From: Porphyridium purpureum
Taxonomy: Eukaryota
Direction of reading: 5' to 3'
Length of the DNA stretch: 64,000 nt
NCBI GenBank assembly: GCA_008690995.1
Contig: VRMN01000001.1
Coordinates: 1,364,001 to 1,428,000 of the forward strand
In this document: piece after piece, positions 3,382 through 64,000 of the stretch
Position numbering within the stretch: position 1 is the stretch's first letter
Layout of the letters: the number at the start of each line of letters is the position of its first letter
The notes under the pieces: model-generated
What the model saw: only the letters and a program-made list of their open reading frames with translations
Told to the model about the DNA's origin: nothing
The model's database searches: none
Program-made: the position numbers and the translations under genes

Positions 3382-4189
3382 CATGGATTAAAAGTGTTCC
3401 GGTCCGAGAGACGCCCTGGGTGTACACCCGGAGGTACGGCGTCTCGGAATTGTTTGAGGTACAGGGGCTTTTTCGCCCGCGTGGTTTTTTACCCTGTACC
3501 TCTGGTTTTGTGTATTGTTGTCTTTCGCCCCGAGGAGCCGGAGTCGCGTGTCCGAGGGAAGCAGGAGCCGCTTGGCGGCCGGCCGGCACCCATTGAGCCG
3601 CTTGCTGACGTGGCTGGCTGTGGCTTCGTTCTGTGGAACGAACGGAGGAAAGCCCAGCCTTTTGGGAGAAATAATTTCTCCCTTCCGCGTCAAGGACAGC
3701 AAGGACGGCGGGGTATATAATGGGCGCGGGCCTGTGCGGTTCCCCGGATTTTCTTTAGAGCGGAAGAAGAGAGGCAAGGGAGTAGGACACAGAGAATAAA
3801 AGAAGAGTTGTTCTTTGGTGTCGGGTGCCTGGGCGTGGTCGTCGGAAGGCGTGGGGCCTTTTGCTGAGCCTGTGTAGCAGAGCCAGCAGCACATCGTGTC
3901 TGGGGGGTTTCGGTGCTCTTAGAGCACTGAAGGCAGACGGCGGCTTTGTCCGTTACGACACCCTGCCCCTGTCGAGACCGGTGCTGTCTGTGCCGACGCG
4001 AAAGGCAATAGTAGAGGCCCTATACGTTGGATTTTCCACGCCCCGGGTATTCGTCGTCTGTGTTGTGTGCGTCGTGTGGTTGTGTTCTCTGTGCTGTGTG
4101 CGTCGTGTTGCTGGGGTTCGGTCATCTGAGAAGGGTTGTGTCATCCGGGTTCGTGCGCTTGTCATCATCAAGCGTGCGAGAATTTAAAG
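3382..4189 (+). repeat. 5' LTR of element 1 (808 bp)
   Basis: Direct repeat of 8574-9383; begins CATGGATT, ends AATTTAAAG; TATATAA at 3714-3720. Confidence 0.95.
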
Positions 4190-4201
4190 TGGTATCATCG
4201 C
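4190..4201 (+). promoter_or_regulatory. Primer-binding site of element 1
   Basis: TGGTATCATCGC directly abuts the LTR end; TGGTATCA is the usual tRNA-iMet-type PBS start; the same 12-mer occurs at 59800-59811. Confidence 0.85.
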
Positions 4202-4211
4202 ATCGGCGAAG

Positions 4212-5168
4212 ATGGATTCTGAGGGAATGGACGTGCAGGGCCTGCAGGGCGGCGCGTCGTGGATTGAAGCTTTCAACCAGCTTCATGCTCGTATCGGAGG
4301 ACAAGAAATGATGATTGTGCAGCTGCAGGAGGGAAACCGCCTCTTGCAGGAGATGCTGCAGAATGTGATGCATCAGGCATCTGTGTCAGCTGGTCCCGGC
4401 GAAACGGAAAGGACCGTTGCATCGCTGATTGGACGCAGCTTGAGAAAATACGACGGACAGCGCGACAAACTCGTTGTGAACGAGTGGTTGTCGAGGATGA
4501 AGCAAGACTTGGACATGTGCATGCCAGCTGGAGCGCTGGAGTCGCAGAAGGTGATCGTAGCGTCGCGCTTCTTTGAGAAGGATGCCGCGCTCCTGTGGGC
4601 AGCTCGCCCTGAGGAACAGAGGATGGCATTGGCCGAGTCCGGTTGGAATGCGTTCGCGAACTTCGTGCGGACGGCATTTGAGCCGCCGCAGGCATACCTG
4701 ACTGCTCGAACGAACTTGTATCAGCTGAAGCAGGGCAAGATGACTGTTGCTGAGTTTGAGCAGCGCCTGAGGATGGTGGCTCTATCCGTGGATAGTGTGA
4801 CGGATGCCGAGCTCAACACCATCTTCACTCTCGGCCTGAAGGAGAAGCTTCGCCTTGAGGTGGCGCGTCAGGACACGAAGACGCTGGAAGAGTCGCTGAG
4901 GGCGGCGTTGGCTGCGGAGCAGGTTGGTAGGTTTGGAGGAGACATGAGGGAGGCTTTTCATGGCGCCTCGAGTCCAAACTACCGGAACAGCTCGTCGTAT
5001 GCCGGGACGGCGCCAATGGATTTGGGCGTCGTGGAGAAACGCCAGCCGGAGAAGCGCAAGCGTGCGGACATGGGCAAAGTCAGATGCTACCATTGCGGGC
5101 AGCGCGGCCACATCAAACCCAATTGCCCAAAGCGGAATGGGCACTTGGCGGGAGGCCCGGAAAACTAA
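4212..5168 (+). CDS. gag: Retrotransposon Gag (capsid-like domain plus CCHC zinc knuckle)
   Basis: KYDG..EWL, LYQLKQGKMTVAEFEQR, PMDLG, and the knuckle CYHCGQRGHIKPNC. Confidence 0.93.
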   Translation: MDSEGMDVQGLQGGASWIEAFNQLHARIGGQEMMIVQLQEGNRLLQEMLQNVMHQASVSAGPGETERTVASLIGRSLRKYDGQRDKLVVNEWLSRMKQDLDMCMPAGALESQKVIVASRFFEKDAALLWAARPEEQRMALAESGWNAFANFVRTAFEPPQAYLTARTNLYQLKQGKMTVAEFEQRLRMVALSVDSVTDAELNTIFTLGLKEKLRLEVARQDTKTLEESLRAALAAEQVGRFGGDMREAFHGASSPNYRNSSSYAGTAPMDLGVVEKRQPEKRKRADMGKVRCYHCGQRGHIKPNCPKRNGHLAGGPEN

Positions 5169-8100
5169 AACCTCGAGGGAGAAGTTGGGAGGTGCACTCG
5201 AGGGGAACGGAACCTCCCGGGATGGGCTTTGTAGGTGAGGTCTGGCGCGCTGATGCGGCGTCGAGGTTGCTCTACAAGCGTGGAACTTTAGATGGCGAGT
5301 CTGTCCAATTTCTGGTGGACAGCGGAGCATCGCACAATTTTCTTGGATCTCGCTTTGTCGGCAGATTTGAAGGGCGCGAGAACGGAATGGTCAAGCTTGC
5401 GGGTGGGCAAAGTGTCTCAGTGCATGGCCCGGTGTTGCAGCATGTTGATCTTGGGTTCTGGAAAGGGCCGGTCAAGTTTTATGTCGGACCTCTGCAAATG
5501 GATGCAATTCTCGGGTGGGACTGGCTGAGTCGCGTGAACCCGAGGATTGATTGGCAGAGGGGTTCGATGGACTTGGAACTTGAAAATGTGGAAGATTGTG
5601 CGATGGTAAATGTCGTGGACGCTCTTTCCGAGTCAAGCGGAAATCAAGCGTACGATGGAGAAGAGGAGAGTGCCAGTGAAGAGGTCGAAGGAAAGATGGC
5701 CGGGATGGAACATGCGTTGACTCACATGCCGATGCGGGATGATTGTGAGACGTGTGTTGTGGCCAAGATCAAGAGCCGACCAGCAAGAAGGCTGGAGAAG
5801 GACTTGTCCACTTTGTCGTTCAATGACGAAGTTGGGATCGACCTGGTGGAGCCCGGACGTAACGTGGAAGCCATCGATGGAGCGAAGTACATGCTGACGC
5901 ACATCGATAGAGCGACGAGGTGGGCCACACTGGCAGGATTGAGAGCCAAAACGCATACGGCGGTTGCTGAAGCTTGGACAAGCGTGCAAGCCGGGCGAGG
6001 ATGGCCAAAGGTACTGAGGACAGATGATGGAAACGAGTTCAGGGGAAATGTGAGCAATTTGGTACGGGAGAATCTCGTGAAGCATGAGATTGGGGTCCCA
6101 CATAGACCGAATAGCCACGCTGAACAGGAACGTTTCCATCATACTTTGAATCAGGGGGTACGAGCAAATCTCCTGCAGTCTGGGCTGGGAAAGCGGTGGT
6201 TTTTGCATGCCGCTCAGCATTTCGTATTCATGTTCAATCGGCTGCACCCAGACAAGAAGTCTGGGAAGTCTCCGTATGAAATGAGGTACGGTGAGAGATG
6301 GAAGCGGGGGAAGGTAGCAGTACCATTTGGGTGCAAGGTGGTTTTCAAGAATGATCAACCGGAGAACAAGTATGCACCCAGAGGAAAGATTGGAGTCCTT
6401 GTTGGAGTTGCGGAGCATCCGCTGGCAATCTGGGTCCTTCCTCAGGAGGAGTGGACGAGTGCGGCACCGAAGCTGACTCGCACTCAGGACTTCAAGGCGT
6501 TCCCTGAAGTGTTTCCAATGCGGACTTTGGAAACAAGGGATGACGAGGAGGTCTCGGCACGTGAGGGTGAAATCGACTTTCACTCTAGGCAGGAAGAACC
6601 GGATAGTCAAGAGACTATGGTGTTGCCTACGAATACGGCCGAGGCGCGTGTATCCGGGAACTTGGAGGAGGATGTTCCCCTACCTATTGGAAGAAGGGGG
6701 AAACGAAAACCCAGGGTATCCTGGAGCCGGGAAGAGGATCAGGCCATCATGGATGGCTTACGGCTCTTTGGCTGGGGGAAGTGGGAAAGAACTCTGCAAG
6801 AATATAAGGCAGTGTTCCGCGATTCAAGAAACGGAAAGGATGTGCGAGCCCGGGCTCATAATATGGGCCTCTCGGAGGAAAATTGGAGGCAACGCGCAGG
6901 AGTTGCTCCAGAAACACCGCAATTGAACTTGACAACTTTGTTGCAGACGAGCCAAGCTCTGGCTTCTTCGGCTGGAAGAGAAGCCATGCAAAAAGAAGTG
7001 GACTTGATGATCCGATTCAAGGTATGGGATGAGCAACCTATTTCAAGGGAAGAAGCTCTCAAGGTCCCAGGCGCACGATTTGTGCGGACACACTTTATAT
7101 TCGGATTGAAGTTCGCTGAGCTTCCGGAGGAGTTTCGCAAGGTCAAGTGTCGGCTTGTTGCTGGTGGAAATAGGATTTGGGATGCCTCAGGGAAGGTCAC
7201 TCAGGATGTGTTTGACTATGAGGTGCCCGCGGGCCTGTCTGCGATCAGAATGCTGATAGCTTTGGCCGCTATCCTAGGATTGAAGATCGTATCGTTCGAT
7301 GTGACGTCGGCGTACTTACACGCTGACTTGTCAGGACCACCGACGTTTGCCATGTTGCCCCGACACGTTCCAGGAGGAGGTGATGGACTTGTCGTTCGCT
7401 TGAGGAGGGCGCTTTATGGCTTGCCAAGAAGCGGGTCTGACTTTTCCCAGGATGCCCGCAGAAGACTTCAAAAGTTCGGGTGGGATTTGATTCACGGCGA
7501 GAAGAACGTATACGTGAAAAAGATGGCGGGAAGTGCATCTGTTGCACTCCTAGCCTTGTATGTCGACGATGGTCTGCTCGCGTGTGTCGAGAAGGATCGG
7601 GGTGAGATATTTCGAGAGTTGAGGTCAGAGTTCCTCATTGAGAAGGAGCCGGAAGTCCTCTCGGAAGGAGCCCCGTTAAGGTTCCTAGGACTCACGATCT
7701 CGGAGTCGGCGACACGGTTTTCGTTGGGTCATGATCACTACCAAGCTTTGGTGGTGAAGGAATTCGAAGAAGAACTTGGGCAGGTGCTGCGAGCGGTGAA
7801 ATCACCAGGTGAGAAGATGAATGCTGACGCTGTATTGGATGTTCAAGTCGAACATGGACATCTGAAAATACGCGAGCATGTCGGGCGGCTGCTGTGGTTG
7901 GCCAGGACGGTCAGACCGGATATCTCCTATGCAGTTGGAGTGGTGGCTCGGTATGTGGATAGCTGGAACGTCGCAGCTGAGAGACTCCTGGTTCGCGTCA
8001 TGCAATACTTGAAGGTGCCTCGTGAGCCACTTGAGTATTTGCAGATGACGTCATTGAAGATCGGCGACGTAAGCGTCTTGGGCTATGCTGATGCCGACTT

Positions 8101-8583
8101 TGCTGGATGCCCGGAAACGCGCAAGTCAACGTCTGGGAGAGTGACGTACTTGGTCGCGGGTGGAAACAAGTATCTGGTCGATTGGAGCTCCAGAAGGCAA
8201 CGCTTTGTGAGCTCTTCGACCTCTGAGTCTGAGATGGCCGCTCTGGAAGAAGCGGTGCAGTTATCTTTGTTTCCGGCATTGTCGTTTCTTCGAAGCGTGC
8301 AAGAGGGGGATTATGCGTTGACCCTGCTTTGTGATAGTCAAGTTGTTCTCCGTGCGGTCGAGATGGGCTACTCGCCAAAGTTGCATCACATGGCAGTGAC
8401 CAGAGCCACGGACTTGGCGTGGATACACCAAGTTTGCGAGAAGCAAAAGCTGGTGAGATTGGAATATGTGAGGACGGGGAAAACGTGTCCGACTTGATGA
8501 CAAAACCTTTGTTTCCGGAAGGTCATATCAGGTGTTGGACTATGTTACGCGTCCCTCAGATCGGAAGGAGGAGCATGGATTAA
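5084..8583 (+). CDS. pol: Pol polyprotein PR-IN-(Myb)-RT-RNase H; 1-nt frameshift near 8476-8480 truncates the annotated ORF at 8497
   Basis: PR LVDSGASHNF; IN HHCC (HALTH..CETC) and D,D,E (GIDLVE, RTDDGNEF, AEQER); Copia-type RT (KCRLVAGG, DVTSAYLHADL, ALYGL, LYVDD, RPDISYAV); RNase H (YADADFAG..RKSTSG, STSESE). Restoring one base gives ..ENVSDLMTKPLFPEGHIRCWTMLRVPQIGRRSMD* ending at 8583, matching element 2. Confidence 0.93.
5159..5220 (+). promoter_or_regulatory. Predicted -1 programmed ribosomal frameshift signal (slippery heptamer plus H-type pseudoknot)
   Basis: G GAA AAC (5159-5165) sits just before the gag stop. 5-nt spacer; stem 1 CCTCGAG 5171-5177 / CTCGAGG 5197-5203; stem 2 GGGAGGT 5187-5193 / ACCTCCC 5212-5218. 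pol is in the -1 frame. Confidence 0.85.
8563..8573 (+). promoter_or_regulatory. Polypurine tract of element 1
   Basis: GGAAGGAGGAG immediately before the 3' LTR; identical at 62288-62298 in element 2. Confidence 0.9.
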
Positions 8584-9383
8584 AAGTGTTCCGGTCCGAG
8601 AGACGCCCTGGGTGTACACCCGGAGGTACGGCGTCTCGGAATTGTTTGAGGTACAGGGGCTTTTTCGCCCGCGTGGTTTTTTACCCTGTACCTCTGGTTT
8701 TGTGTATTGTTGTCTTTCGCCCCGAGGAGCCGGAGTCGCGTGTCCGAGGGAAGCAGGAGCCGCTTGGCGGCCGGCCGGCACCCATTGAGCCGCTTGCTGA
8801 CGTGGCTGGCTGTGGCTTCGTTCCGTGGAACGAACGGAGGAAAGCCCAGCCTTTTGGGAGAAATAATTTCTCCCTTCCGCGTCAAGGACAGCAAGGACGG
8901 CGGGGTATATAATGGGCGCGGGCCTGTGCGGTTCCCCGGATTTTCTTTAGAGCGGAAGAAGAAGAGGCAAGGGAGTAGGACACAGAGAATAAAAGGAAGA
9001 GTTGTTCTTTGGTGTCGGGTGCCTGGGCGTGGTCGTCGGAAGGCGTGGGGCCTTTTGCTGAGCCTGTGTAGCAGAGCCAGCAGCACATCGTGTCTGGGGG
9101 GTTTCGGTGCTCTTAGAGCACTGAAGGCAGACGGCGGCTTTGTCCGTTACGACACCCTGCCCCTGTCGAGACCGGTGCTGTCTGTGCCGACGCGAAAGGC
9201 AATAGTAGAGGCCCTATACGTTGGATTTTCCACGCCCCGGGTATTCGTCGTCTGTGTTGTGTGCGTCGTGTGGTTGTGTTCTCTGTGCTGTGTGCGTCGT
9301 GTTGCTGGGGTTCGGTCATCTGAGAAGGGTTGTGTCATCCGGGTTCGTGCGCTTGTCATCATCAAGCGTGCGAGAATTTAAAG
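8574..9383 (+). repeat. 3' LTR of element 1 (810 bp)
   Basis: By eye differs from the 5' LTR by one substitution and two 1-nt insertions; followed by TSD CCGGA. Confidence 0.95.
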
Positions 9384-37318: not shown

Positions 37319-37801
37319 CCGTCCGCCCCTCTCCACTCTCTTGCCCCGAGTCCCCTCCAACGCCCATCTGCGCTATTTCGCCCGCATCACCCACCTGCCC
37401 CCACCATGCCCGGAGCTCAAACCGCCACGCACAGAACACCCGCCGCCCGCGCGCCGCCCTACCAAAATGCAATCACCATTCGGAGTACAGTGCGTTCCTT
37501 CTGCAGCGCGCGTTTCCGTCGTACACGTGACTCACCACTGTACCTAAAACCAGCGCCAAACCGTGAAGCGGTTTCGGGTGTCTCGGACCGACATGAACCG
37601 GCAAGCACGTCGACGTGCGCGACGGCTGGTGTTGCTGTTGTTCCTGTTGGTGCTGGTGTGGCTTGTCGGGGTCTTGGGTCTCGGCTTTCGGTTCACGCTG
37701 CGACGCGCGGCATGCGCTGATAAGCCGAACTGCAAGTGCGCCACGATTATTCCACGCGCACGCGCGGCGCAGATTCTCTCTTTTGTGTCTGTGTGTCTTC
37801 C

Positions 37802-41756: not shown

Positions 41757-42004
41757 CGCGCACCAGGCCCGATCAGACAACAGATGCTCGGAGGCTTCCG
41801 ACTGGCGTCTCTTACCTTCGGGCACACACATTCCTCGAAGCAGCCCAGCTCGGGCACGCAGGTGTCATTACTGAAACGCTTAGACTCGTAGGTTTTTCTA
41901 TCAAAATGGCCAGGTTTACTGGATTCAAAGTACAGTTTGGGTGTACAGTACATTACGAGCACAAGCGAGCGTTTTTGTGTTGCGCCATGGGCGTGTGGCA
42001 TGCG

Positions 42005-43758: not shown

Positions 43759-46700
43759 TTAGCGCTTACGAAACTCAGAGCGCAACGCAGCAATATCAGA
43801 CGTCAACAATTCCTTCTTTTTCTCCCCAACGCGCTCTGCAGGTTTCGTGGTGCCTGGATCGGATGACTGACTGACTGGTACATCCACTGATTCTTGGACC
43901 TTTTTCTTCTCCCCCGACTTGCTGTGCGGAATTATGATTATTTTCTTCACCTTAGAGGAAAATGTGGACTCGTCGTGCGCTTGCTCTTTCCCACGTTTCT
44001 CGTCTGCGGCTTTGCTTCGTGTCAAATCAGAATGACGTTTGCGAATTGCAGACATACGGGCAGCGTCCATGTCGGACAACGGGTCTACTTCGCTTTCAGA
44101 AATGGCCTCTTCACGCGAGTCCAAAGAAAAAGTTCGTGAAATACGTCCGCCCATGGAGTTTGTGGAATTGTCCAACGAACCATTTGCGCCCCGGGTTATT
44201 ACGCCAGACGAAGAATGGTCAAGTTCTTCCGGAGATCCGAATTTCTTGGAAGTGGTACCCGATGCCTTGCGCTTAAAGGCGGCTCGAAGATTGATCAAAT
44301 CGGTCTCTGAGTCAATCGGCTGCTCCAGCGTGCGCGTCCTAGAGAGCGACGACTGCAAAATCGGCTCGTGGGACTCGGCAACATCGGTATCCACCGATAA
44401 GGTCTCGCTTTCCACAGACCCCGCGGGCTTGCGGAATACTGCGCGGAGATCGGATACACTAGCATCGGCTATATCAGCCGGTTGCTTTGATTCCTGTAAT
44501 TCGTCCTGTTCAGTGTCAACTCGCACTTCTTCGGCGTCCTTCGACTTCGTGGGCTTCCGAAACGCCGCCCGAAGATCCGAAACACTAGCTTCTGCGATTT
44601 CAAGAGGTCGTTTCAGAATATTGGAAGCGCGTGTAACATTACTGCGCAGTCGAGGCTTGGCCTGGAAGTCTTTGAGTCCCGCTGGATCGGGCATCCCCGC
44701 TGGTGCTCTGTCATGAATGCATACCTGCGCGACAAAGTTCCACGCAAAGTGACGAATCACATCCATACCGTCCGTCGAAATGCGAGGAAAGCGCACTATA
44801 ATGTGCGAGTGTGTGTTTGTCGCATTCAGCTCTACATTCACGTGCACCCATGGCATGCTGCATAAGTTGCGCCTCATTTCTAGCACGTCGTGAAGCAGAT
44901 TTCCTGCAACAAGCTTGGTTGCTGACCATTTCTGTTGGATATCGAAGACTCGCTCAGCACTTCCCAAATCAGACGCCATTCCTGCCGACGTACGAAGCAA
45001 GCAGTCGTAAACCAGTTCCACTTGCTTCGCGTCTTCTTTCATGGTCATCCCCTTCATGACCGGGACCGAGTTCATGTTTAGCGACGGCAGCGTCATAAGT
45101 TTGTCAAAGATCCCCGTGCCTGTATTCAATTGCTTTGCCTTCGCAGGGCCGGGCACTGCGTTTGCTGCAGCGGGAAGCGCCAAAGTTCCTTCGCGCATAC
45201 TCAGATCAGTAGTCCTGCTATTGTGTCCGGCCATTGAATGGCTTCGAGCGGCGCCACTAATATCCTTGCTTCCGATAATGTCTGAGTGACGGTCTGCTCG
45301 TGGGCTCCCGAGAACAGCTCCCGCGTTCAGGGCAGAAGCAGGCTCTGCTCCTACCTTTTTTCCGTCACTCACCCGATACTTCGTTGTCCTTCTGGAGAAC
45401 ATGGACACCGATTTCAACACACTGCCGGTGACTTTGGAGACCATGGATGATGACGAGTGAGACGTAGAATCATGATCGGCGTTGTGATCATCTTCACTCT
45501 TTTTGACATCGCGGGTTGAAGAAACTGAACCAATTAATGAATCCTTTGCATGAGCTCCTTCCATCTCCTCTGGTTGTTCCTGATTGTGCAGTTCAAGCTC
45601 ATCGCGGTGATTTGTGTCCTCGGTGTTCTCATTTGTTGATACGAAGGTGCCTTTCTCAAAATTCTCAAGCCAAGGATCCGCAGTCACCACGCGAATCAAC
45701 CTCATCACAGCCGATTGATCCGGCTCGTCACTGTTTGCTTCTTCGACGGCGGAACCTTTTGAGAAGTCCGTGACAAGCTCATTCCTTTTCTCTGTCTCCA
45801 CGTCCTCGTGCTTCTCTGTGGACTGTATGTCAGACCAGAGCGATCCAGTGGACTTTACCCGTCGCGAGCGAAACCTGTTTGCGCCCACATTCCTGTATTT
45901 CACGGGCAAAGACGGACATGACGAGCTCTTTGCAAGCTTTCTCTCTGTGTCCGTCGCTTGGAGCGCAGCGCCCAACTCGTGAACAGCACTGGCGTGTCCA
46001 TCAACTTTCGCGCTGATTGAGGTAAATGACCGTGAAGCCACTATCTTTTTGCTGGAAGTGATGCTCGAAATGGCATTCACCGTACCCTGAACAGCCCTCT
46101 CCGGCAAACTTTCAGCGGCTTCATTTTGACTTCTTGTGCGTTGCTCAACAGGCTGCGCCGGCAAGCAGCTTTCAATTTTCTGCGAAAAACGCATACACAC
46201 CACGTGCGGGTATTCATTACTTTCTGCGGGGATTGTGAACTGATTGGACAATGCCTTGAGCTTTTCGTACGGTTCACTCAGAGCAAAGCTTGAAGTGTAG
46301 TACGGCACTGTGAGATCGTGACGCGCGTTGGCATAGCAAAAGCGCTGCTTGAACAAGGACAGCGAGAATAGAAACACCCCGCGTGACAAGTTATACACCA
46401 TCTTCTCCTTATCTTTGAGCACCATCTGATGGCCCGTTTTCCGCATCAGCCGCGCGCCCTGCTCATCCCAAAGCGCATTGTTTCGATTGTCCCCGAGATG
46501 CGGCGACGCAAACGACGCATACACAAAAAGTTCCACCTTCTTCATTTTCATGTGCAGCGGCTCCGCGCGAATCAAGCAGGCTTTCGCATCTTCTGCCAAC
46601 GTCCGATTTGCTTTCAGAAGAGCCAATTCCTTCTGCTGCTCGAACGACAGACTCACAAAACCTCGGTACACGAGCTCAGCCGCAGCAAAACGAGTGAAGA

Positions 46701-47547
46701 GACCACCTAGACTATGTCCCGCAAGGGACAAATACTTGAGCTTTGGCATACAGGTGGCCACCTCGAGAATCAGGTCTACAAGCCGGTTTCCGCCCTTCCC
46801 TACTCCCTCAAAGGTCTCAAGCTGCTCGCAAGCATCACTGCACAATACGTATACTCCGGTGTTTAACGCCACTTGATGCGTTTCCCAGATTGAATCATCG
46901 TCCACGCTCTCGTGAATTTCCGAATTTTTCGGTTGCCGGTCGAACGGATTCAGGGCCTCGACGCCCTTTCGAAGAAGGCTTATCTGCTCTGCCCCATCTG
47001 CGCTTTTCTCCCCCTCAGGTGCGTATTCATCGATACCAGACTCAAATACATGCGTACCTCCTTTGGTTCTTGGCAACCTGTTCATGGCTGGCTGCTGTTC
47101 CTCGCTTCCATCCTTTCCATCATCATGAGAATCCTTCATCGGCACGCCTTTCACTCTGTGCATAACTGTCTCTGGTGGATGCGGAATCATATCTGCGCCA
47201 GACATTGCGGCAAAGGCGATGTGCTCTCGCACTTTAGCCCCTACTTCAACGGAGGTCGCCACGGCGGCGGCAGCCCTGCCGTCGAGCATCTCGACGCCAG
47301 CTGCGAGTTTCTCAAACTCAGGCCGTGTCCTCCTGGCGGCCGCGGCCGCTGCGGCAAGCGGAGACTTCTGGAGGACCTGATCGAGCACCTCCTTCATCTT
47401 CTGCATATCTTTTGCCTTCCCGCCGACGCCATTCTGCAGCACAACCAGATGCTGGACGCCATGGCACACCTTGTACTGCTCCTCCTCATTCCGGAAGCCC
47501 AGGGCCGCGACCAGTGGCTTCAGGCCCATCTTCATTGCGCCGTGCAT
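43759..47547 (-). CDS. DUF676 alpha/beta-hydrolase (putative lipase) with long disordered insertions
   Basis: HLVVLQNG, TFEGV..GG.RL, SLAGHSLGG, FASPHLG, YANARHDLTVPYYTS, distant THSHIIVR. Confidence 0.88.
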   Translation of the reverse strand: MHGAMKMGLKPLVAALGFRNEEEQYKVCHGVQHLVVLQNGVGGKAKDMQKMKEVLDQVLQKSPLAAAAAAARRTRPEFEKLAAGVEMLDGRAAAAVATSVEVGAKVREHIAFAAMSGADMIPHPPETVMHRVKGVPMKDSHDDGKDGSEEQQPAMNRLPRTKGGTHVFESGIDEYAPEGEKSADGAEQISLLRKGVEALNPFDRQPKNSEIHESVDDDSIWETHQVALNTGVYVLCSDACEQLETFEGVGKGGNRLVDLILEVATCMPKLKYLSLAGHSLGGLFTRFAAAELVYRGFVSLSFEQQKELALLKANRTLAEDAKACLIRAEPLHMKMKKVELFVYASFASPHLGDNRNNALWDEQGARLMRKTGHQMVLKDKEKMVYNLSRGVFLFSLSLFKQRFCYANARHDLTVPYYTSSFALSEPYEKLKALSNQFTIPAESNEYPHVVCMRFSQKIESCLPAQPVEQRTRSQNEAAESLPERAVQGTVNAISSITSSKKIVASRSFTSISAKVDGHASAVHELGAALQATDTERKLAKSSSCPSLPVKYRNVGANRFRSRRVKSTGSLWSDIQSTEKHEDVETEKRNELVTDFSKGSAVEEANSDEPDQSAVMRLIRVVTADPWLENFEKGTFVSTNENTEDTNHRDELELHNQEQPEEMEGAHAKDSLIGSVSSTRDVKKSEDDHNADHDSTSHSSSSMVSKVTGSVLKSVSMFSRRTTKYRVSDGKKVGAEPASALNAGAVLGSPRADRHSDIIGSKDISGAARSHSMAGHNSRTTDLSMREGTLALPAAANAVPGPAKAKQLNTGTGIFDKLMTLPSLNMNSVPVMKGMTMKEDAKQVELVYDCLLRTSAGMASDLGSAERVFDIQQKWSATKLVAGNLLHDVLEMRRNLCSMPWVHVNVELNATNTHSHIIVRFPRISTDGMDVIRHFAWNFVAQVCIHDRAPAGMPDPAGLKDFQAKPRLRSNVTRASNILKRPLEIAEASVSDLRAAFRKPTKSKDAEEVRVDTEQDELQESKQPADIADASVSDLRAVFRKPAGSVESETLSVDTDVAESHEPILQSSLSRTRTLEQPIDSETDLINLRAAFKRKASGTTSKKFGSPEELDHSSSGVITRGANGSLDNSTNSMGGRISRTFSLDSREEAISESEVDPLSDMDAARMSAIRKRHSDLTRSKAADEKRGKEQAHDESTFSSKVKKIIIIPHSKSGEKKKVQESVDVPVSQSSDPGTTKPAERVGEKKKELLTSDIAALRSEFRKR

Positions 47548-48480
47548 AGTGCCTGTGTGCGCTCCTCCCCTGACGTCATCCACTCATCCACGCGAGCGGA
47601 TACCCGCGCCGTTGACCTCGCTCCTTCCCTCCCTCTCCCCTCCTCCGCAGCACTTCTTTCAACTGATAGCGACTGTCAGCGCTAAAAATAAATCGCCCAG
47701 TCAGGTTTTGTGCATGGCAGCTGAACACCTCCCTGGCCATAGTAAATTTCGACATTCCAGTATAGAACCATTCACTGTACCCCGCCTCAGCGGCGGCAGG
47801 TCGGTGTGCGCACACATCTCGTTTCAACCGATGTGAACGAACCGCCACCGACAGAAACTCCCAGGGTTGGCACACCGATATCAGTGCCGATGCGACTCTG
47901 GGGACTTTTTCCACTTGGCGCTTGCTCCGTACCGACGACAACGACGGCCACATATGAGGCCGCGCTCTGCGTCGAGCTTCCTGTGCTGGGGTAGACAGAT
48001 GCCGACGCACAGCGGCATGCTGCTTCGTGCAAATTGGAACAGGCACTGGCAGCCAACCCGTTTCGGTTTGCGGTTGAACCATCGAGCCGTTAAACTGTTA
48101 AACCGTTGAACCGTTGAACCGCTCTGCGCGCGTGCGAAATGCGCCGCGGTATAAGGTACAGTGATTCGAGTTGAACTGAAACAGTTGTGACGCCTGCGAC
48201 CGGGTGAGTGCAAATGCACTAAGATACTCGCCCGGCGAGAGAAGAGAGAGAGAGAGACGGAAGAGGGAGAGCGGCTTGGCGCTGGCGCCGTGGCAGGGGG
48301 AGTGACTCCGTCGCGGCGAGATTTGCGCGACACGTGCGCGCGGATGGAAAAGAAAGGGTCCGGGCAGTGGACAAGACGCGCTGTGGTTTTGGCTCCTGCG
48401 TTCATGGGATTCCCCGCCGCCGCGGAACACGCGATTGGACGTGATATCGGGTGCGCCGGTTGGCGTGCGCGCAGTTGGGC

Positions 48481-51400
48481 ATGGACGGACTCCGCCAGAT
48501 GGACGTCAGGGTTTGGAGGCAACATGAGCAGAATATTAGCGCGAGACACGCGCACGGGGTAGCTCAGAATGCCCGGCTGCACGATCGTACCCTCGTTCAG
48601 GATGCGCCGCTTTGGCTTCCGTGTCCGGTCTCGCAAACTCCGCCAGGTGGAGCACCAGCATTAGCCGCCGCGCTGACGGCATCAAAATGTCGCACAGATA
48701 ACACGCAGGCAGAGAGCACACCCTTCGCGGTGATTCCTCCTCATGTGTCCATGGGGTCCGCCGCGGTATCAATTTCCGTGCCGTGTTCGTCGCCCGGGTT
48801 CCAGGTATCCAACGGTTTGCTCACGCAACGTCCTCATGAATCAGAATCTCGATCAGGTACGGATGTAAGCGTGCCGCACGCTCATCTCTTTACTTATGAG
48901 GCAGCGAACGGATACACGCACAATGATTCCTCGAAACGACTCCATTTCGCGCCGGATTGGCACAGAGACGCATCTTCCGAGCGGTCTGCCGTGGTTGTGA
49001 AATTACAGCTGGCCTTAAAAAGTTGCGAGATGATCGCTCGGCGCGGCAAGTGGGTTGCCGCGATTCAGCAGTGTGCCGAAATATTCAAGGATATGTTTCG
49101 CTTGTGCAAGGAATGCAATTCCTCATCACCGCCCGCCGCGTCACGGGCGCGGCGCATCGCGTTGTCAGAGCCGTCTACGGCGTCAGCGACAGATTTTGTG
49201 GCACTGGCACCGTGCACGAAGCCCTCGCTGGATTTCATCTTCTCCGCGGCGCGGCTGGTAACGGAGGAAAAACGCCTATTTCACGAGGCGCTTCGGCTCA
49301 TGGGCATTTGCCAGCTTCTTGCAAAGCAGTATGGGCAAGCGCTCTTTTACCTCGACTTTGATCTGAGGATCGAGGAACGTGATTTCCTCTCCTTGCACGC
49401 ACTCGGCCGAGCAGTGCATGAATCGACACCGGCCAAGGCCGGCATCGTGGTGGGCATCTTGCGGCGCGCACTCACGGAGCGTCATGCCTTTGACGAGCAC
49501 GTGCGCGAGGTAGTGGCAAGCAGCGGAGACTGCGGCCTTGAGGGTGCAACTATGAAACATACCGGATTCCTTTGTGATGGCCTGTGTATGGGTACGGAAC
49601 AGAGCATCAGGGAGTTGCTTGCTACCGTCCTGACAGACATCGGCGTGAAGCTGAAAGCGGCGGAGCTGCCACTGGATGCGTTGCATGTGTATGTTGAAGC
49701 CGTACAGGTTTTACCGACGTATGCGCGAGCATTTTACAACATTGGCGTGGCGCACGCCGAGTTGGGCGTGGTACACATGGCGTTGGAGGCATACGAGCGG
49801 GCAGTGGCGTTGAGTCCAGACTTTGCGGAAGCTTGGTGCAACATGGGGGTGATTCACAAAGCGGCTGGCAACATTCCCAAGGCGGTGGAAATGTATGAGC
49901 GCGCGCTGTCCATTAATAGTAATTTTGAACTGGCGAAGCGGAATTTGTCTGTGGCGCTAAGCGATCTTGCGACGCTGATGAAACCAAACTCGATGAAACA
50001 AGTGATCGCCTTGTACAAGCGGGCACTCTCGTACAATCCCGGCTGCGCAGAGATTCACCACAATCTGGGCGTGGCGTACTCCGAGGTATGCAAAGTGGAA
50101 CGCGCCATTGCGTCGTACCAGCTCGCCACCTGTCTCAATCCGAATTATGCTGAGGCACACAACAATCTGGGCGTGGTATACAAGGAGTGCGGCAATTATG
50201 AGCAGGCCATTGAGTGCTACAAGGCGGCAATTGCGACCAATGCAAATCACTTCCAGGCGCACAACAATCTTGCGGTTGTGTACACTCTGCTGGGTACCAT
50301 AAGCCTGGCAAAGCTGCATTTTCTTGCCGCTCTCAACCAACACCCGTCGTACGCTGAAGCACAAAACAATCTCGGTGTATTGTTTCGAGAAGAAGGAGAC
50401 ATCCTCCGCGCCATCAGTTGCTACGATCGTTGCCTCGAGCTTGAGCCCAGCAATGACATGGCGGCCCAGAACCGCCTGCATGCGCTCAACTACGTGGAGG
50501 GATTGAGTACGAATGACATCTTTAAGGAGCACGAGAGCTGGGGTCGCCGTTTTCAGGAGCGAGTGGAAAGTGAACTGCGCACACGTGCTAACGGAGGTGA
50601 TGAGGAGGCGCGAGCCGTACAATTCATGCGTAATCGCGTTCTCAAGGCCATTCGGCAGCCGAGGAGGAACGACGAGCGAAGACTGCGCATCGGCATTGTT
50701 TCGGCGGATTTTTTTACGCACAGCGTGTCGTACTTTGCGGAAGTCGTGCTTGCCGAGTTGAATCCAGAGAAGTTCGAGTTGTACGTGTACTCGAATGTGG
50801 CACGAGAGGACACAAAGACAAAGCGTTTCCAGGAGTTTGCCAATGTGATGCCCCGCTGGAAACGCGTCACGGGCATGAAAACGATTCCGTGCGCGGCGCT
50901 AATCCTGAACGACAATATCGACATCATGATCGAGCTGTCCGGCCACACGGCCGGGAACCGGCTGGATGTGATGGCGCTTCGGGTGGCTCCAGTGCAGATA
51001 ACGTGGATCGGCTACCCAAACACGACGGGATTATCATCCATTGACTATCGTGTCACTGATGCCGTGGTTGATCCGATTGACACACCGCAACTTTTCTCAG
51101 AACGACTGTATCGCTTGCCTCGAAGCTTCCTCTGCTACACACCGATGGCCGATGCCCCAGAAGTGGATCGTACCCCACCTTGTGTGCGAGCAGGAGGGCT
51201 GATCACGTTTGGGAGCTTCAATATTCTGGCGAAAATGCAGTCGCAAACCGTTGCGCTGTGGGCCCGCGTTCTGCGTGAGGTGCCTGAATCTCGGCTCATG
51301 CTCAAATCAAAGGCGCTGGGCTGCGAAACGACAAAGCATCGGATCGAGTCCATGTTCGAAGCGCACGGCATCGCGCCATACCGTCTTGACCTTGTTCCGC

Positions 51401-51795
51401 TAGTGCCATCGACCAGCTCGCATCTGGACATGTATGGCATGGTCGACATTTGTCTGGATCCATTTCCCTACGCGGGGACGACCACAACATGCGAAGCCCT
51501 CTTGATGGGCGTTCCGGTGGTTTCTTTGTGTACGAGTACCTCCGACGCGTCGTTGCTGTCGCATGTACAGAATGTCGGACTGAGTCTTCTCACCAGTGTT
51601 GGTCATCCCGAATGGGTGGCTAGTACACCGGACGAATACGTCAGCATTGCACGCAGGCTGGCTGCAGACTCGTCTACGCTTGTTGCCATACGTTCGAGTC
51701 TGCGGGGCGACATGTTACGCAGCGCTCTGTGTGACCGGCCTGCGTACATGGCCGAGGTCCAAGACATGTTGCTCGACATGTGGGCGCAAGGTTAA
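48481..51795 (+). CDS. SPY: SPINDLY-type protein O-fucosyltransferase (TPRs plus GT41); start uncertain
   Basis: TPR array (AEAWCNMGV, AEAHNNLGV), QNRLHALNY, DFFTHSVSYF, ELSGHTAGNRL, APVQITWIGYPNTTG, TFGSFN, PYAGTTTTCEAL. Confidence 0.95.
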   Translation: MDGLRQMDVRVWRQHEQNISARHAHGVAQNARLHDRTLVQDAPLWLPCPVSQTPPGGAPALAAALTASKCRTDNTQAESTPFAVIPPHVSMGSAAVSISVPCSSPGFQVSNGLLTQRPHESESRSGTDVSVPHAHLFTYEAANGYTHNDSSKRLHFAPDWHRDASSERSAVVVKLQLALKSCEMIARRGKWVAAIQQCAEIFKDMFRLCKECNSSSPPAASRARRIALSEPSTASATDFVALAPCTKPSLDFIFSAARLVTEEKRLFHEALRLMGICQLLAKQYGQALFYLDFDLRIEERDFLSLHALGRAVHESTPAKAGIVVGILRRALTERHAFDEHVREVVASSGDCGLEGATMKHTGFLCDGLCMGTEQSIRELLATVLTDIGVKLKAAELPLDALHVYVEAVQVLPTYARAFYNIGVAHAELGVVHMALEAYERAVALSPDFAEAWCNMGVIHKAAGNIPKAVEMYERALSINSNFELAKRNLSVALSDLATLMKPNSMKQVIALYKRALSYNPGCAEIHHNLGVAYSEVCKVERAIASYQLATCLNPNYAEAHNNLGVVYKECGNYEQAIECYKAAIATNANHFQAHNNLAVVYTLLGTISLAKLHFLAALNQHPSYAEAQNNLGVLFREEGDILRAISCYDRCLELEPSNDMAAQNRLHALNYVEGLSTNDIFKEHESWGRRFQERVESELRTRANGGDEEARAVQFMRNRVLKAIRQPRRNDERRLRIGIVSADFFTHSVSYFAEVVLAELNPEKFELYVYSNVAREDTKTKRFQEFANVMPRWKRVTGMKTIPCAALILNDNIDIMIELSGHTAGNRLDVMALRVAPVQITWIGYPNTTGLSSIDYRVTDAVVDPIDTPQLFSERLYRLPRSFLCYTPMADAPEVDRTPPCVRAGGLITFGSFNILAKMQSQTVALWARVLREVPESRLMLKSKALGCETTKHRIESMFEAHGIAPYRLDLVPLVPSTSSHLDMYGMVDICLDPFPYAGTTTTCEALLMGVPVVSLCTSTSDASLLSHVQNVGLSLLTSVGHPEWVASTPDEYVSIARRLAADSSTLVAIRSSLRGDMLRSALCDRPAYMAEVQDMLLDMWAQG

Positions 51796-58178: not shown

Positions 58179-58646
58179 TTACTGGATGTCAATCACGCGA
58201 GTCGCAGACGACTCGACGTACTCACGCTTCGGCAGCTCAATTGAGACAATGCCGTCCTTTGCAGAGGCTGCAATCTTGTCAACCATAATATCATTCCCAA
58301 GGTCCATGCTCTGCTCGAACGCGCGCGAAGAAAAGCTGTGCATGGGGCCATCCGCTCGGCCTTCCGAACTCTCTAATTTACCGCTCACCTTGAGAACATT
58401 GTCCTTGACCTCCAGCTTAATGTTTTCCTTTGGAATTCCAGGCGCTTCAATGTTCACGACGAACTTGTCGTCAAATTCCTGCATCTCGCTCGGCGGTCCG
58501 ACGAGCGTGGGGTCGAACATGCGGTTCCACTCGTTGCGCGCGCTACCAAAGGGAGCATCCATAATCTTGTCAATCAAGTCCCACGTGTTTCCTCGGCTGC
58601 CACGCAGCGAGGCCAGCGGTCCAAGTCCACGAGCACGAAGTGCCAT
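58179..58646 (-). CDS. Small heat-shock protein (HSP20, alpha-crystallin domain)
   Basis: EAPGIPKENIKLEVKDNVLKVSG..F..SMDL..I.ASAKDGIVSIELPK..IDIQ. Confidence 0.93.
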   Translation of the reverse strand: MALRARGLGPLASLRGSRGNTWDLIDKIMDAPFGSARNEWNRMFDPTLVGPPSEMQEFDDKFVVNIEAPGIPKENIKLEVKDNVLKVSGKLESSEGRADGPMHSFSSRAFEQSMDLGNDIMVDKIAASAKDGIVSIELPKREYVESSATRVIDIQ

Positions 58647-58910: not shown

Positions 58911-59001
58911 CCTCTCTGGCCAGAACTGTACTTCTGCGCTGTACTGGCTGCTAGAACGCGGTTCAGTGCGCTCACGATATGTACACTTGTAGCCATGTGA
59001 A

Positions 59002-59799
59002 CGTGGAATTTTAGGGTTCCGCCCCGAGAGACGCCGTAGGGTTTTGAGTACAAAACCCTAGAAAGTTCTATGATGAAAGATTGTTCGAGAAGCGTGATGA
59101 TCTCGGACCTGCGAAATGTTTGTCATTGTCGTTTTGTGTGGCCTTGTGCAAAGGTCAAAGGCCGGCCGAAGCTTCTGGATTCGTTCTTGACGCGCCCTCC
59201 CGGCCATTTTCCGGATACGTGGCCGGCTGTGGTTGCGAGTTGTGGAACGAATCAAAACCTGTGGTGGAAATTCGTCCTGTTGGAGAAATTTGTTCTCCCG
59301 TCCTTGCTGGAAAGAGCAAGGACGAAGGGTATAAAAGGACGAAGGGGCAAGCTGGTTCCCAGGAATTTCCAGGTCAAGGTAGAAGAAGAGGTAAGGGCAA
59401 ATAGAATAAAAAAGAGAATTGGTTAGTTGGATTGAGGCAGTCGTTGGAAGACTTGGGTTGGATTTGCGGGAGAGGCACGCTAGCGTGTTGTGCGAGCGGA
59501 TATCGGTCTGGAGTGTTTTTAAAAAGGCAGCTGGGGTTTAAACGTACCTTCCATCACCCTTCACTTGTCAAGACCGGTCCACTCCCTCTCGTAGTCCCCT
59601 ATAAGTTGAATTTTCTGTCCTCTCTTCCTTTCTAGCCACTTTTCTCTGATTGTCCCGCTTGTCCTTCCGTTCGTTTCGGTGTGTCGGTTCGTCGTCGGTT
59701 TGTCAGTTTCCGGGGTGTGGCGGTTTCCAGTTCCTGTTATCGGTGAAGCGGTCCGGTTTTGTTGATTCGGTTACAAAGCAGAAAGGGAGAAATTCCAAG
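59002..59799 (+). repeat. First LTR of element 2 (798 bp)
   Basis: Begins CGTGGAATT, ends AATTCCAAG, followed by TGGTATCATCGC; TATAAAA at 59330-59336. Confidence 0.9.
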
Positions 59800-59828
59800 T
59801 GGTATCATCGCCCGGTTGTTTGGAGAAA

Positions 59829-62311
59829 ATGGAAAGCCATGAAATGGAAATGAATGTCCCGCAGGAGAATGCGGCATGGATTGAGGCAGCTAATCAGCTG
59901 CATGCGCGCATTGCGGGACAGGAGATGATGATGGGAATGAGTTCAAGGGAGATGTGGGGAGACTGGTGCGTGAACACCTCATAAAGCACGAGGTGGGGAT
60001 TCCGTACAGGCCAAACAGTCACGCTGAACAGGAGCGGTTTCACCACACGCTGAATCAGGGAATCCGTGCGAATCTTGTGCAGGCCGGACTCGGGAAGCGT
60101 TGGTTCATGCACGCCGCGCAGCATTTTGCGTTCATGACGAATAGACTTCACGTGGGCAGGAAGTCTGGAAAGACGCCGTTTGAATTACGACATGGTGAAA
60201 AATGGTCGCCGAGAAATCTTAGTTTGCCATTCGGGTGCAAGGTGGTCTACAAAGATGATCAGCCTGACAATAAGTATGCACCGCGAGGAAAAGTTGGCAT
60301 TCTCGTCGGCGTTGGAGAGCATCCGATGGCACTTTTGGTGCTTCCTCGGGATGACTGGACGAGTGAGACCCCAAAAGTAATTCGCACTCAGGATTTTAAG
60401 GCATTTACCCATGAGTTCCCTTTAAAAGGAATTGAACGAGAGATGGTGAGCCTTAGCCAGCAGGAAGAGTTGCCAGAAGTGGACGAACCATCCGCGGTTG
60501 AAGCGGTGCAGGACTTGGATCGTCGTATCGATGCTCTCAGAACTAGAGAAGCGGAGCTTGAGAAAGAGATCGAGGCATTGAAAGTGAGGGTGGTTGACGA
60601 AGAACGGGCAGCAGGCACGGGTGGTCCAGTGGCGATCCCACAGTTGAACTTGACGACTTTGCTGAAAACTGGAGCGGCGTTGGCGTCTGAGCAAGGACGA
60701 GCCGCGATGGAAAAAGAAGTCAAATCCATGCTGAAATTTGGGGTATGGGATGAGAGTCCCTTGACGCTGGAGGAGGCCCGGAGGCAACCTGGTGCTCGTT
60801 TCGTACGCACACATTTCATTTTCGGTCTGAAATTTGCTGAGATGCCGGAAGAATTTCGCAAGGTGAAGTGCCGCTTGGTGGCCGGGGGAAACAGGATATG
60901 GGGGTCCGATGGAGCTGCGACGAATGACATTTTTGATTATGAGACGCCTGCTGGTTTGTCAGCTATCCGAATGATAATAGCTGTGGCTGCAATTCTGGGC
61001 CTTCAGATTGTTAGCTTCGACATCAGTTCGGCATACCTCCATGCGGACCTGTCTGGGCCACCTACGTTTGCATATTTACCGCGTGAAATTTGTGATTCAA
61101 AAGGCACAGTAGTCAGGCTGAGAAAGGCGCTGTATGGCTTGCCCAGGAGCGGCTCGGATTTCTCACAAGATGCTCGGAGGAGATTGCAAAAGTTCCAGTG
61201 GAAGCTCGTGCATGGTGAAAAGAATGTGTACGTCCGGAGAAATGCTGCAAGTTCGTCAGTTGCATTGCTGGCTCTGTACGTGGATGATGGTCTATTAGCC
61301 TGTCGAGAGGAGGAACGCCCAGGAATCATCGAAGAATTGAAACAAGAGTTTCTCATGGAAAAAGCACCAGAACTATTGACGGAAGGGGGATCCTTGAGAT
61401 TCCTGGGGACGAGCATTTCCCTCAAAAATGGGAGCGTGAGTTTGGCGAATCAAGAGTATCAAGATGTGGTCGTTCGGGAATTTGAGCAGGATATTAGACG
61501 CGTATTGCGTGCCGTGAAGTCACCATCTGAGAAGCTAGATGGCGAGGAAGTTCTGAATTATCAAGTCATCTGGAAGACTTTGAAAGTAAGAGAACACGTC
61601 GGGAGGCTGATGTGGCTCGCCAGAACGGTTCGACCTGACATTGCGTATGCAGTCGGTATGATTGCCCGGTACGTTGACAAGTGGAATATGGCAGCAGAAA
61701 GGCTGCTCGTACGAGTCGTGCAGTATTTGAAAACACCTCGGGAAGCATTGGAGTATCACGTGTTGGGGAATCTCAAGGAAGGCATCAGAGGGGTGAACAT
61801 TGTTGGATACACGGATGCTGACTTTGCTGGTTGTCCAGAGAGTCGTGTGTCGACTTCTGGAAGAGCAACGTACTTAGTTGCTGGAGATTACAAGTACCTA
61901 GTGGATTGGTCTTCAAGAAAGAAGCGTTTCGTGAGCTCGTCGACTTCAGAGTCGGAGCTGGCCGCCCTAGAGGAAACTGTGCAACTCTCGTTGTTTCCTG
62001 CATTGTCTTTCTTGCGAAGTATACGTGACGGAGAGTTCTCGGTGATTTTGATGTGTGACAATCAAGCTGTGATGCGAGTAATAGAGATGGGGTACTCGCC
62101 AAAGTTGCATCATATGGCGATAACCCGAGCAACAGATTTGGCCTGGTTGCATCAGGTGTGCGAAAAGCAGAAACTTGTGAAACTGGTATTTGTGAAGACG
62201 GACGAAAATGTGGCGGACTTAATGACCAAGGCCTTATTTCCGGAGGGCCACATTAAGTGCTGGGAGAAGTTACGCGTCCCTCAGACCGGAAGGAGGAGCG
62301 TGGAATTTTAG
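59829..62311 (+). pseudogene. pol: gag N-terminal stub fused out of frame to a 5'-truncated pol (half IN, coiled coil, intact RT-RNase H)
   Basis: WIEAANQLHARIAGQEMM (gag) joins DDGNEFKG (integrase) at 59924-59933; ORF 59954-62311 aligns with element 1 Pol. Confidence 0.9.
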
Positions 62312-63077
62312 GGTTCCGCCCCGAGAGACGCCGTAGGGTTTTGAGTACAAAACCCTAGAAAGTTCTATGATGAAAGATTGTTCGAGAAGCGTGATGATCT
62401 CGGACCTGTGAAATGTTTGTCATTGTCGTTTTGTGTGGCCTTGTGCAAAGGTCAAAGGCCGGCCGAAGCTTCTGGATTCGTTCTTGACGCGCCCTCCCGG
62501 CCATTTTCCGGATACGTGGCCGGCTGTGGTTGCGAGTTGTGGAACGAATCAAAACCTGTGGTGGAAATTCGTCCTGTTGGGAAATTTGAATTCTCCGTCC
62601 CGCTGGAAAGAGCAAGGACGAAGGGTATAAAAGGACGAAGGCGTTGGTTCCCAGGAACTGCGTCAAGGGGTAGAAGAAGAGGGGCAAGAAATAAAAAGAG
62701 AATTCAATAGCTAATTGAGCATTAGCCGGAAGACTTGGGTTGGATTTCAGGAGAGGCACGCGAAGCGTGCTGTGCGAGCGGGATATCGGTCTGGAGCGTT
62801 TTTAAAAAAGGCAGCTAATTTAAACAAAACCTTCCATCACCCTTCACTCTAATAAGACCGGTCCACTCTCCTCGTAGTCCCCTATAAGCTGGAATTTTCT
62901 TGTCCCTCTTCTAGCCACCTCTTTCTGATTGTCCCGCTTGTCCTTCCGTTCGCTCTCGGTGTGTCGGTTCGCCGTCGGCCTTGTCAGTTCTGGGTGCGGC
63001 GGCTCTCAGTCCTGCTATCGGTGAAGCGGTCCGGCTCTTTTGCTGATCTGGTTACAAAGCAGAAAGGGAGAAATCGC
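62299..63077 (+). repeat. Second (shared) LTR of element 2; 3' end and PBS degraded
   Basis: Repeat of 59002-59799: near identical for about 280 bp, then many small indels. Confidence 0.85.
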
Positions 63078-64000
63078 GGTAATTACCGCCCGGTTGTTTG
63101 AGAAAATGGAAAGCCATGAAATGAGGCACGAATGTCCCAGTAGTGAGGAAAATGCGGTGATGGATTAGGCAGCTAATCAGCTGCATGCGCGCATTGCGGG
63201 ACAGGAGATGATGATGGGAAATGAGTCTGCTGGAGATGGGGAGATTCGGAGAGGCAGAACACCTCATAAAGCACGAGGTGGGGATTCCGTACAGGCCAAA
63301 CAGTCATGCTGAACAGCAGCGGTTTCACCACACGCTGAATCAGGGAATCCGTGCGAATCTTGTGCAGGCCGGACTCGGGAAGCGTTGGTTCATGCACGCC
63401 GCGCAGCATTTTGCGTTCATGACGAATAGACTTCACGTGGGCAGGAAGTCTGGAAAGACGCCGTTTGAATTACGACATGGTGAAAAATGGTCGCCGAGAA
63501 ATCTTAGTTTGCCATTCGGGTGCAAGGTGGTCTACAAAGATGATCAGCCTGACAATAAGTATGCACCGCGAGGAAAAGTTGGCATTCTCGTCGGCGTTGG
63601 AGAGCATCCGATGGCAATTTTGGTGCTTCCTCGGGATGACTGGACGAGTGAGACCCCAAAAGTAATTCGCACTCAGGATTTTAAGGCATTTACCCATGAG
63701 TTCCCTTTAAAGGGAATTGAACGAGAGATGGTGAGCCTGAGCCAGCAGGAAGAGTTGCCAGAAGTGGACGAACCATCCGCGGTTGAAGCGGTGCAGGACT
63801 TGGATCGTCGTATCGATGCTCTCAGAGCTAGAGAAGCGGAGCTTGAGAAAGAGATCGAGGCATTGAAAGTGAGAGTGGTTGACGAAGAACGGGCAGCAGG
63901 CACGGGTGGTCCAGTGACGATCCCACAGTTGAACTTAACGACTTTGCTGAAAACTGGAGCGGCGTTGGCGTCTGAGCAAGGACGAGCCGCGATGGAAAAA
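63078..64000 (+). pseudogene. Second copy of the deleted internal region (partial)
   Basis: Repeats about 59810-60714, including the same gag/IN junction. Confidence 0.88.

Follow-up and report, generated by a model that had tools for sequence, protein, structure and literature searches.

The window analysed here, a 64,000-nucleotide stretch of Porphyridium purpureum DNA (contig VRMN01000001.1, positions 1,364,001 to 1,428,000; coordinates below are those of the window), carries two LTR retrotransposons, both of which read on the forward strand. Element 1 is present at full length (3382..9383), with LTRs at 3382-4189 and 8574-9383 that are 99.6% identical, and is flanked by a 5-nt target duplication (3377-3381 and 9384-9388). 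The insertion is polymorphic, because a contig from run X5 joins the two flanks of element 1 with the element absent (an empty site). Its gag (4212..5168) encodes a Ty3-type capsid with a zinc knuckle, and its pol frame (4931..8497) encodes a Ty3-type protease, integrase, an SH3-like domain, the interval with which this report is concerned, reverse transcriptase (RT) and RNase H. The pol frame lies at -1 relative to gag, and a G_GAA_AAC heptamer, which from its sequence and position is a candidate ribosomal frameshift site, stands immediately ahead of the gag stop (5155-5168); in public gene models the change of frame is spanned by a predicted intron. The pol frame stops just short of the final RNase H motif, which runs on in another frame (8480-8500) as the result of either a mutation or an assembly error. 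Seventeen proteins belong to the 90% cluster of element 1.

Element 2 is an internally deleted derivative that forms tandem arrays with common LTRs (59002-64000); such arrays are also represented by P0006 and P0046, the latter comprising three units on another contig. Its 5' LTR (59002..59799) is followed by a primer-binding site from 59800, and contigs of four runs have loose ends at 59799-59800. A gag stub (59829..59934) ends at a deletion junction with an 8-nt overlap (59927-59934), defined by contigs of runs X2 and X5. Compared with these contigs the window copy is missing 1,668 nt, a gap that runs from about gag codon 35 to the integrase core and so removes the protease and the N-terminal part of integrase along with most of gag. 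Full-length copies of the family do occur, and P0007 has the protease and the whole integrase. The remaining ORF (59894-62311) encodes the second half of the integrase catalytic core with the SH3-like domain (59927..60421), a 72-residue interval (60422..60637), and an RT of RVT_2 type with RNase H (60638..62311). It is followed by a polypurine tract (62288-62298) and the LTR common to the second tandem unit (the two together spanning 62288..63075). The second unit, which extends past the window end, contains a second copy of the interval (63707..63922) with 5 nt differences. Dense small indels separate the two units at 62580-63260, where the neighbouring sequence is about 99% identical, and this cluster looks like a local consensus error of the assembly. 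The two 90% clusters of element 2 contain 16 and 2 proteins.

Element 2 lies 356 nt upstream of the start codon of a host HSP20 gene on the reverse strand (58179..58646), and element 1 stands 39 nt upstream of an ORF of 163 codons, which has no Pfam match and may not be a gene. Other host genes in the window encode a TPR and glycosyltransferase 41 protein (SPINDLY/OGT-like) and a DUF676 esterase-like protein (48445-51795 and 43759-47583). ARAGORN found no tRNA in the window.

Element class and LTR ends

Both families have the pol order protease-integrase-RT-RNase H, which is that of Ty1/Copia elements, and the RT of both elements matches the Copia-type RVT_2 family (E 7e-19 and 8e-17); the trees contained no Ty3 RT. 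LTRs, primer-binding site, polypurine tract and 5-nt target duplication are present, the duplication being known from element 1 alone (element 2 runs off the window). In Pfam, Gag matches Retrotrans_gag and Ty3_capsid and the protease matches Asp_protease_2 and gag-asp_proteas, and these Ty3-type matches ruled out a typical Copia-type Gag and protease. Judged by their domain matches, the elements are chimeras that have a Ty3-type Gag and protease and are Copia in integrase-RT-RNase H only.

The LTR termini are CA...AG in element 1 and CG...AG in element 2, not the typical TG...CA. These ends were located from the target duplication, the empty site and the loose ends in four runs (3377-3390, 9375-9388, 59002-59006 and 59790-59799), and in both families two additional bases flank what would otherwise be TG...AA or TG...CA termini. 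The non-canonical ends suggest integration without the usual two-base 3' trimming. The red-algal element PyRE10G has a Ty3-like Gag and protease. Copia elements reported from red algae include PyRE10G and the GalEa-like CoPorcru (PMC3587641 and PMC2806351). GalEa elements differ from those described here in their TG...CA ends and primer-binding site, and on these two features, as given in PMC3587641, the present elements do not fit the GalEa clade; our trees were built without GalEa or PyRE10G sequences.

The interval between integrase and reverse transcriptase

The initial annotation had described the two Pol proteins as closely alike up to a TQDFKAF..FP motif and again from PQLNL, and the alignment bears this out, with TQDFKAF at 60386 and PQLNL at 60638 in element 2. 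Between the two elements, 116 of 165 positions are identical from the integrase core to FP (70%), as are 369 of 512 in RT-RNase H (72%). The interval between these blocks is 133 residues long in element 1 (6518..6916), where it consists of an acidic linker, a basic patch and a Myb-like domain. As had been read, it is shorter and heptad-bearing in element 2, with 72 residues made up of an acidic linker, a leucine-zipper-type segment and a short Gly/Pro linker; this length is unchanged in all matching copies of the family. No alignment of the two intervals, as protein or as DNA, was better than shuffles (z -1.1 to +1.1).

The Myb-like domain of element 1 (about 6704-6871) passes the Pfam Myb_DNA-binding cut-off when the interval is scored alone (27.3 bits versus 24.4; 23.6 bits on the whole protein), and its best PDB match, and nearest solved structure, is human TRF1 (E 4.7e-4). 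Telobox Mybs have an LKDKWR-like recognition helix with the third Trp. In element 1 the sequence of helix 3 is KDVRARA, three other families have KDVRSKA there, and identification as a true telobox (TRF-type) Myb was rejected. Among 12 copies of the element 1 family, variation affects 3 of the 51 Myb positions and 6 of the 62 in the linker.

In element 2 each of the four d positions of the heptad run (60506..60592, 29 residues) is Leu, and the a positions read V, I, E, I and V. Its heptad score was reached by 2 of 20,000 shuffles and was the highest among 148 intervals from related proteins (7 versus at most 4 in the others), with a score that was devised after the sequence had been seen. AlphaFold2 run without an alignment predicted one 39-residue helix at this position (pLDDT 80-95), with low confidence in the rest of the model and a mean pLDDT of 60. 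The segment thus has the features by which a leucine zipper is recognised, namely at least four heptads, Leu at d and a single helix, and we refer to it as the zipper. Pfam returned only generic coiled-coil matches to the interval, all below the cut-off. The zipper was rejected as part of a bZIP domain, the preceding 28 residues being acidic with no basic region, and bZIP being absent from the 8 Pfam families matched at E up to 0.1.

Within the family, 14 copies (14 of the 15 proteins listed for the main element 2 cluster) show no variation at the 35 zipper positions. Variable positions elsewhere number 1 of 24 for the linker ahead of the zipper, 4 of 198 for integrase and 6 of 207 for RT. The window copy differs at one zipper position, an f position, and no copy has a replacement at a or d. 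In the interval, single-letter variants from four other runs comprised 4 silent changes and 2 replacements (P = 0.06 against neutrality); for its flanks the respective counts were 9 and 4 (P = 0.003). The copies are young, and therefore provide no strong test of conservation; the invariance of the zipper within the family is not significant. None of these four runs, out of 24 listed, contained a divergent strain copy of element 2, the differences being sparse single letters.

Searches for shorter relatives and among longer proteins found the zipper in one family only, so that there is no deep conservation to test. The search for shorter relatives gave P0066 as its only hit (1 of 5,172). The search for a donor among longer proteins returned 2 of 566 candidates, which were the two clusters of the family itself, and this is weak evidence. 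A metagenome scan gave 45 pattern matches, none of which was confirmed, and the Atlas gave no usable match to either interval (best 0.87 for element 2; none for the Myb). Comparison with 142 other intervals identified no source for the zipper, the best z being 2.7, with P0070 and P0071 below their shuffle means. Judged from its sequence, we consider the zipper fairly probably to be a selected module.

Contents of the interval across related elements

We surveyed the interval in the best 150 representatives of a full HMMER search, which together with earlier hits made 177 proteins and yielded 148 intervals (29 proteins gave none, and a few intervals, such as those of P0072 and P0094, were mis-cut). 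An eight-ligand Cys/His module, C-x2-C-x(8-14)-C-x2-C-x-H-x-C-x4-C-x-C/H, was found in 34 of the 148 intervals; many Copia elements of protist type thus have it at their integrase tail (P0067, P0070, P0071 and 31 more). Seven ligands are invariant in an alignment of 22 of these modules, and from this ligand pattern we infer that the module binds zinc. Its model was predicted confidently (pLDDT 91); Foldseek at E 0.001 returned no match to it, and neither did VIA-align at Z 2 over 48,161 chains. Matches to Pfam were weak and scattered (best E 0.024), and those to PDB sequences were partial RING matches (best E 0.007); the lack of a Pfam or PDB match does not establish a new fold.

Myb domains occupied 13 of the 148 intervals, in nine families that are all from P. 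purpureum. Pfam scans of 34 proteins detected a CW finger at this position in 2 of them (E 1e-5 and 9e-4, each below the cut-off); these CW-type zinc fingers stand immediately ahead of RT, at residues 1265-1306 of P0099 and 333-362 of P0100. Modules were also combined, as Cys/His with Myb in P0069, Cys/His curtailed by a Myb in P0076 and Cys/His with CW in P0099, and in P0067, P0070 and P0071 the Cys/His module is accompanied by a long charged helix. The linkers of the intervals could not be aligned, even among Myb families. In a larger tree with 58 ingroup rows, 27 rows had Cys/His only, 7 Myb only, 3 a combination, 1 CW only, 1 the zipper and 8 no recognisable module, while 11 were unknown. 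These rows were picked from 146 by RT score or by possession of a module, and six redundant copies were left out, so the shares of the modules are overstated. The slot can therefore be empty: the 8 rows in which no module was recognised include the P. purpureum families P0082 and P0083.

We mapped the interval contents onto RT phylogeny. In a 27-row tree of RT-RNase H, elements 1 and 2 are sisters (support 100/100), and the sister of this pair is P0070 with the fragment P0090 (99/97), which have no Myb where the interval is known. Myb occurs in three groups of the tree, requiring at least four changes, and the Cys/His module requires five; these counts do not separate gain from loss. A single clade of the Myb families with element 2 and P0068 was rejected (AU p = 0.012), the group having been named after the tree was seen. 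The contents of the slot do not follow the RT tree, which argues that the modular slot is real. Thus the cassette slot proposed in the initial annotation is borne out by several discrete modules at the same position, patchily distributed on the RT tree. The initial annotation would have been contradicted by an unconserved linker within each subfamily. Instead, the Myb is recognisable across nine families whose RTs are 33-68% identical, and the zipper is constant in its 14 copies, though these are young and near-identical throughout. The integrase-RT interval of this clade is very probably a modular slot, and one that spans more than the two elements first suggested.

The proposal that the coiled coil stands in place of the Myb holds for position only. 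The nearest outgroup carries a Cys/His module and a charged helix; loss of a Myb in element 2 and gain of one in element 1 are therefore both possible. The Cys/His module is scattered through the deeper branches and is likely to be the old occupant of the slot.

A Myb-only tree was unresolved and did not reject vertical descent (AU p = 0.32), so repeated loss could stand in for true swapping. The Myb of element 1 shares 36-41% identity with four Mybs, and the RT-RNase H of those four shares 34-36% with that of element 1, while in most other pairs Myb identity is below that of RT. This mismatch hints at transfer of the Myb but, over about 55 columns, is too slight to carry weight. P0215 and P0217, which have related RTs and come from the same genome, combine a Myb and the RT of this clade with an ordinary Copia Gag, protease and integrase. 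Recombination between lineages has therefore occurred.

Possible roles of the tail modules

Targeting domains are found at the integrase C-terminus of Ty1 and Ty5, that of Ty5 being short, and Myb-bearing non-LTR elements include the telomeric TRAS elements. The choice of insertion site in gene-dense genomes has been described in detail for a few yeast and plant elements. Integration is redirected when the integrase targeting domains of Ty1 and Ty5 are swapped, the domain of Ty1 being one that binds a protein of the host (Asif-Laidin et al. 2020, PMC7459421). Like the elements described here, these have a Ty1/Copia integrase with a small extra domain, which in their case can be swapped. However, theirs are short motifs proven by experiment, whereas here at least four kinds of folded or predicted-folded modules, known from sequence, would have been exchanged in nature. 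CopiaMBD of centipede and spiders, also a Copia family, has a captured methyl-CpG reader beside the integrase in the same ORF that was proposed to guide insertion (de Mendoza et al. 2019, PMC6673714). That was one monophyletic capture with binding shown by DAP-seq, whereas here Myb, CW, Cys/His and zipper alternate inside a single clade, and even inside a single genome. Chromoviruses likewise have a chromatin-reader module at the integrase C-terminus that steers insertion (PMC6673714), but they have the Ty3/Gypsy order with integrase last, whereas the tail described here is internal, between integrase and RT. R2 non-LTR elements share the use of a retroelement Myb, in their case for target DNA, and differ in class and insertion chemistry. 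The Myb of element 1 is nearest by sequence to TRF1 and lacks the telobox motif.

A hydrophobic residue and L/V followed by T/A opens RT right after the slot in all 21 proteins inspected. Reading this conserved motif as a cleavage site, the protease would cut after the slot, and the module would therefore form the integrase C-terminus. Families might acquire, drop or swap modules through in-frame deletion, and through template switching when RNAs of different families are packaged together. We propose a slot with differing modules in which the zipper on the integrase tail docks onto a host coiled-coil protein, as the Myb contacts DNA or chromatin, and we give this proposal as a whole an even chance of being correct. 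The zipper would likely bring integrase to promoter-like DNA by docking on a coiled-coil protein of the host, and the Myb of element 1 would likely do the same job by direct contact with DNA or chromatin. CW fingers are readers of methylated histone tails, and a CW finger in the slot would contact such a tail. In a genome as gene-dense as this one, the tether would bias the elements against inserting into coding DNA. For the zipper taken by itself, the role of host-docking tether is tentative and falls somewhat short of an even chance. A more far-reaching version, which we regard as speculative and unlikely to hold in full, would make the slot a natural plug-in socket, in which at least fourteen families of one red-algal genome carry different plugs (Cys/His, a mobile TRF-like Myb, both, a zipper or none, with CW in relatives). 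Each plug would read a different chromatin or protein cue, and the zipper would hijack a host bZIP-type factor and land at stress-gene promoters. Tf1 favours stress-gene promoters through Sap1 (PMC5741268).

TGTAC motifs cluster in short intergenic stretches of the window, mostly upstream of genes (9396-9414, 23184-23256, 37485-37539, 41930-41948 and 58927-58981), and the motif adjoins both insertions; by location the clusters are a candidate promoter element. TGTAC was present in three of four element 2 LTR-end flank snippets from other runs, against a background of 4.8% of 30-nt windows (P = 4e-4), and in one of two element 1 right flanks; the motif was picked after the flanks had been seen, and the numbers are tiny (two window insertions and five flank snippets). 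These contexts suggest that both families favour intergenic, promoter-like DNA. No difference in insertion target between the two families was seen in the few flanks examined. The contexts are thus alike despite the different modules, so that the slot may not set the target, and this counts against the strong form of the initial annotation's idea that the slot holds alternative targeting modules. As sister families that are recently inserted in one genome and differ almost solely in the tail module, the two constitute a natural swap experiment, in which existing reads would allow a comparison of insertion maps.

The similar insertion contexts would also be expected if the zipper were a self-association module for assembly of integrase or Gag-Pol, in the intasome or the particle, with no role in targeting. 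By the pairing rules of coiled coils, self-pairing is favoured by Leu at every d position, by V or I at all a positions but the central one of the five, and by two g-e pairs that attract each other in the parallel homodimer register. However, Glu at a central a position and repulsive g-e pairs disfavour self-pairing, and the zipper has Glu at its central a and one repulsive Arg-Arg g-e pair. Because of this Glu, we propose that the zipper would pair with a different partner and not with itself. Prediction of a two-copy zipper complex gave a score of 0.04 and a mark of 0.32 with controls not folded, and counts neither for nor against binding. Self-association is also disfavoured by the absence of a zipper from every other relative, even the sister at 72% identity, and by the nature of Myb, CW and Cys/His, which from knowledge of such families are reader-type folds and not oligomerisers. 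We consider it a doubtful explanation.

A second alternative is that the zipper is a by-product, an E/K/R-rich spacer that drifted into heptads after loss of a module, only its length and open frame being of importance. Families with a plain linker exist (the 8 of 58 rows above), interval linkers are unalignable even where a Myb is present, the sister lineages P0067, P0070 and P0071 have long charged helices, and the evidence for selection is weak (the P of 0.06 above). Against this, the regularity of the heptads is far above that of shuffles and of the 147 other intervals, those with charged helices included, and the sole change in the zipper is at f, with a and d intact in every copy. We regard drift as rather improbable.

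Still less probable, in our judgement, is that the zipper is a remodelled older part, either Myb helices fused without their turns or the charged helix that follows Cys/His in the sister lineage. With MAFFT the zipper can be threaded onto helices 1-3 of the Myb, the P0070 sister group has a helix right behind its Cys/His module, and no outside donor was found among longer proteins. However, neither as protein nor as DNA did this threading outscore shuffles. A nine-copy Myb profile that recovered each left-out Myb at 13.7-78 bits scored the element 2 interval below 0 bits, and descent from a Myb by detectable homology was rejected. The best z of 2.7 against 142 other intervals, with P0070 and P0071 below their shuffle means, also counts against this reading.

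That the slot is instead the N-terminus of RT or a separately released peptide, acting in reverse transcription or LTR regulation, is very improbable, since the sole conserved cleavage-like motif sits after the slot and a crossover in the linker accounts equally well for the Myb having travelled with RT in P0215 and P0217.

If these integrase tails retarget integration, the known set of targeting modules grows. The survey yields a conserved Cys/His module without a Pfam or PDB match, as well as Myb and CW in Copia tails. Neither these three nor a zipper was described in a Copia integrase tail among the matches listed in our search of openly available full texts, so earlier annotation of these tails is possible. 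One surveyed protein, P0080, has an AAA_28 NTPase-like domain after RNase H (residues 1213-1375, E 5e-13), which is either a fusion or a gene-model artefact.
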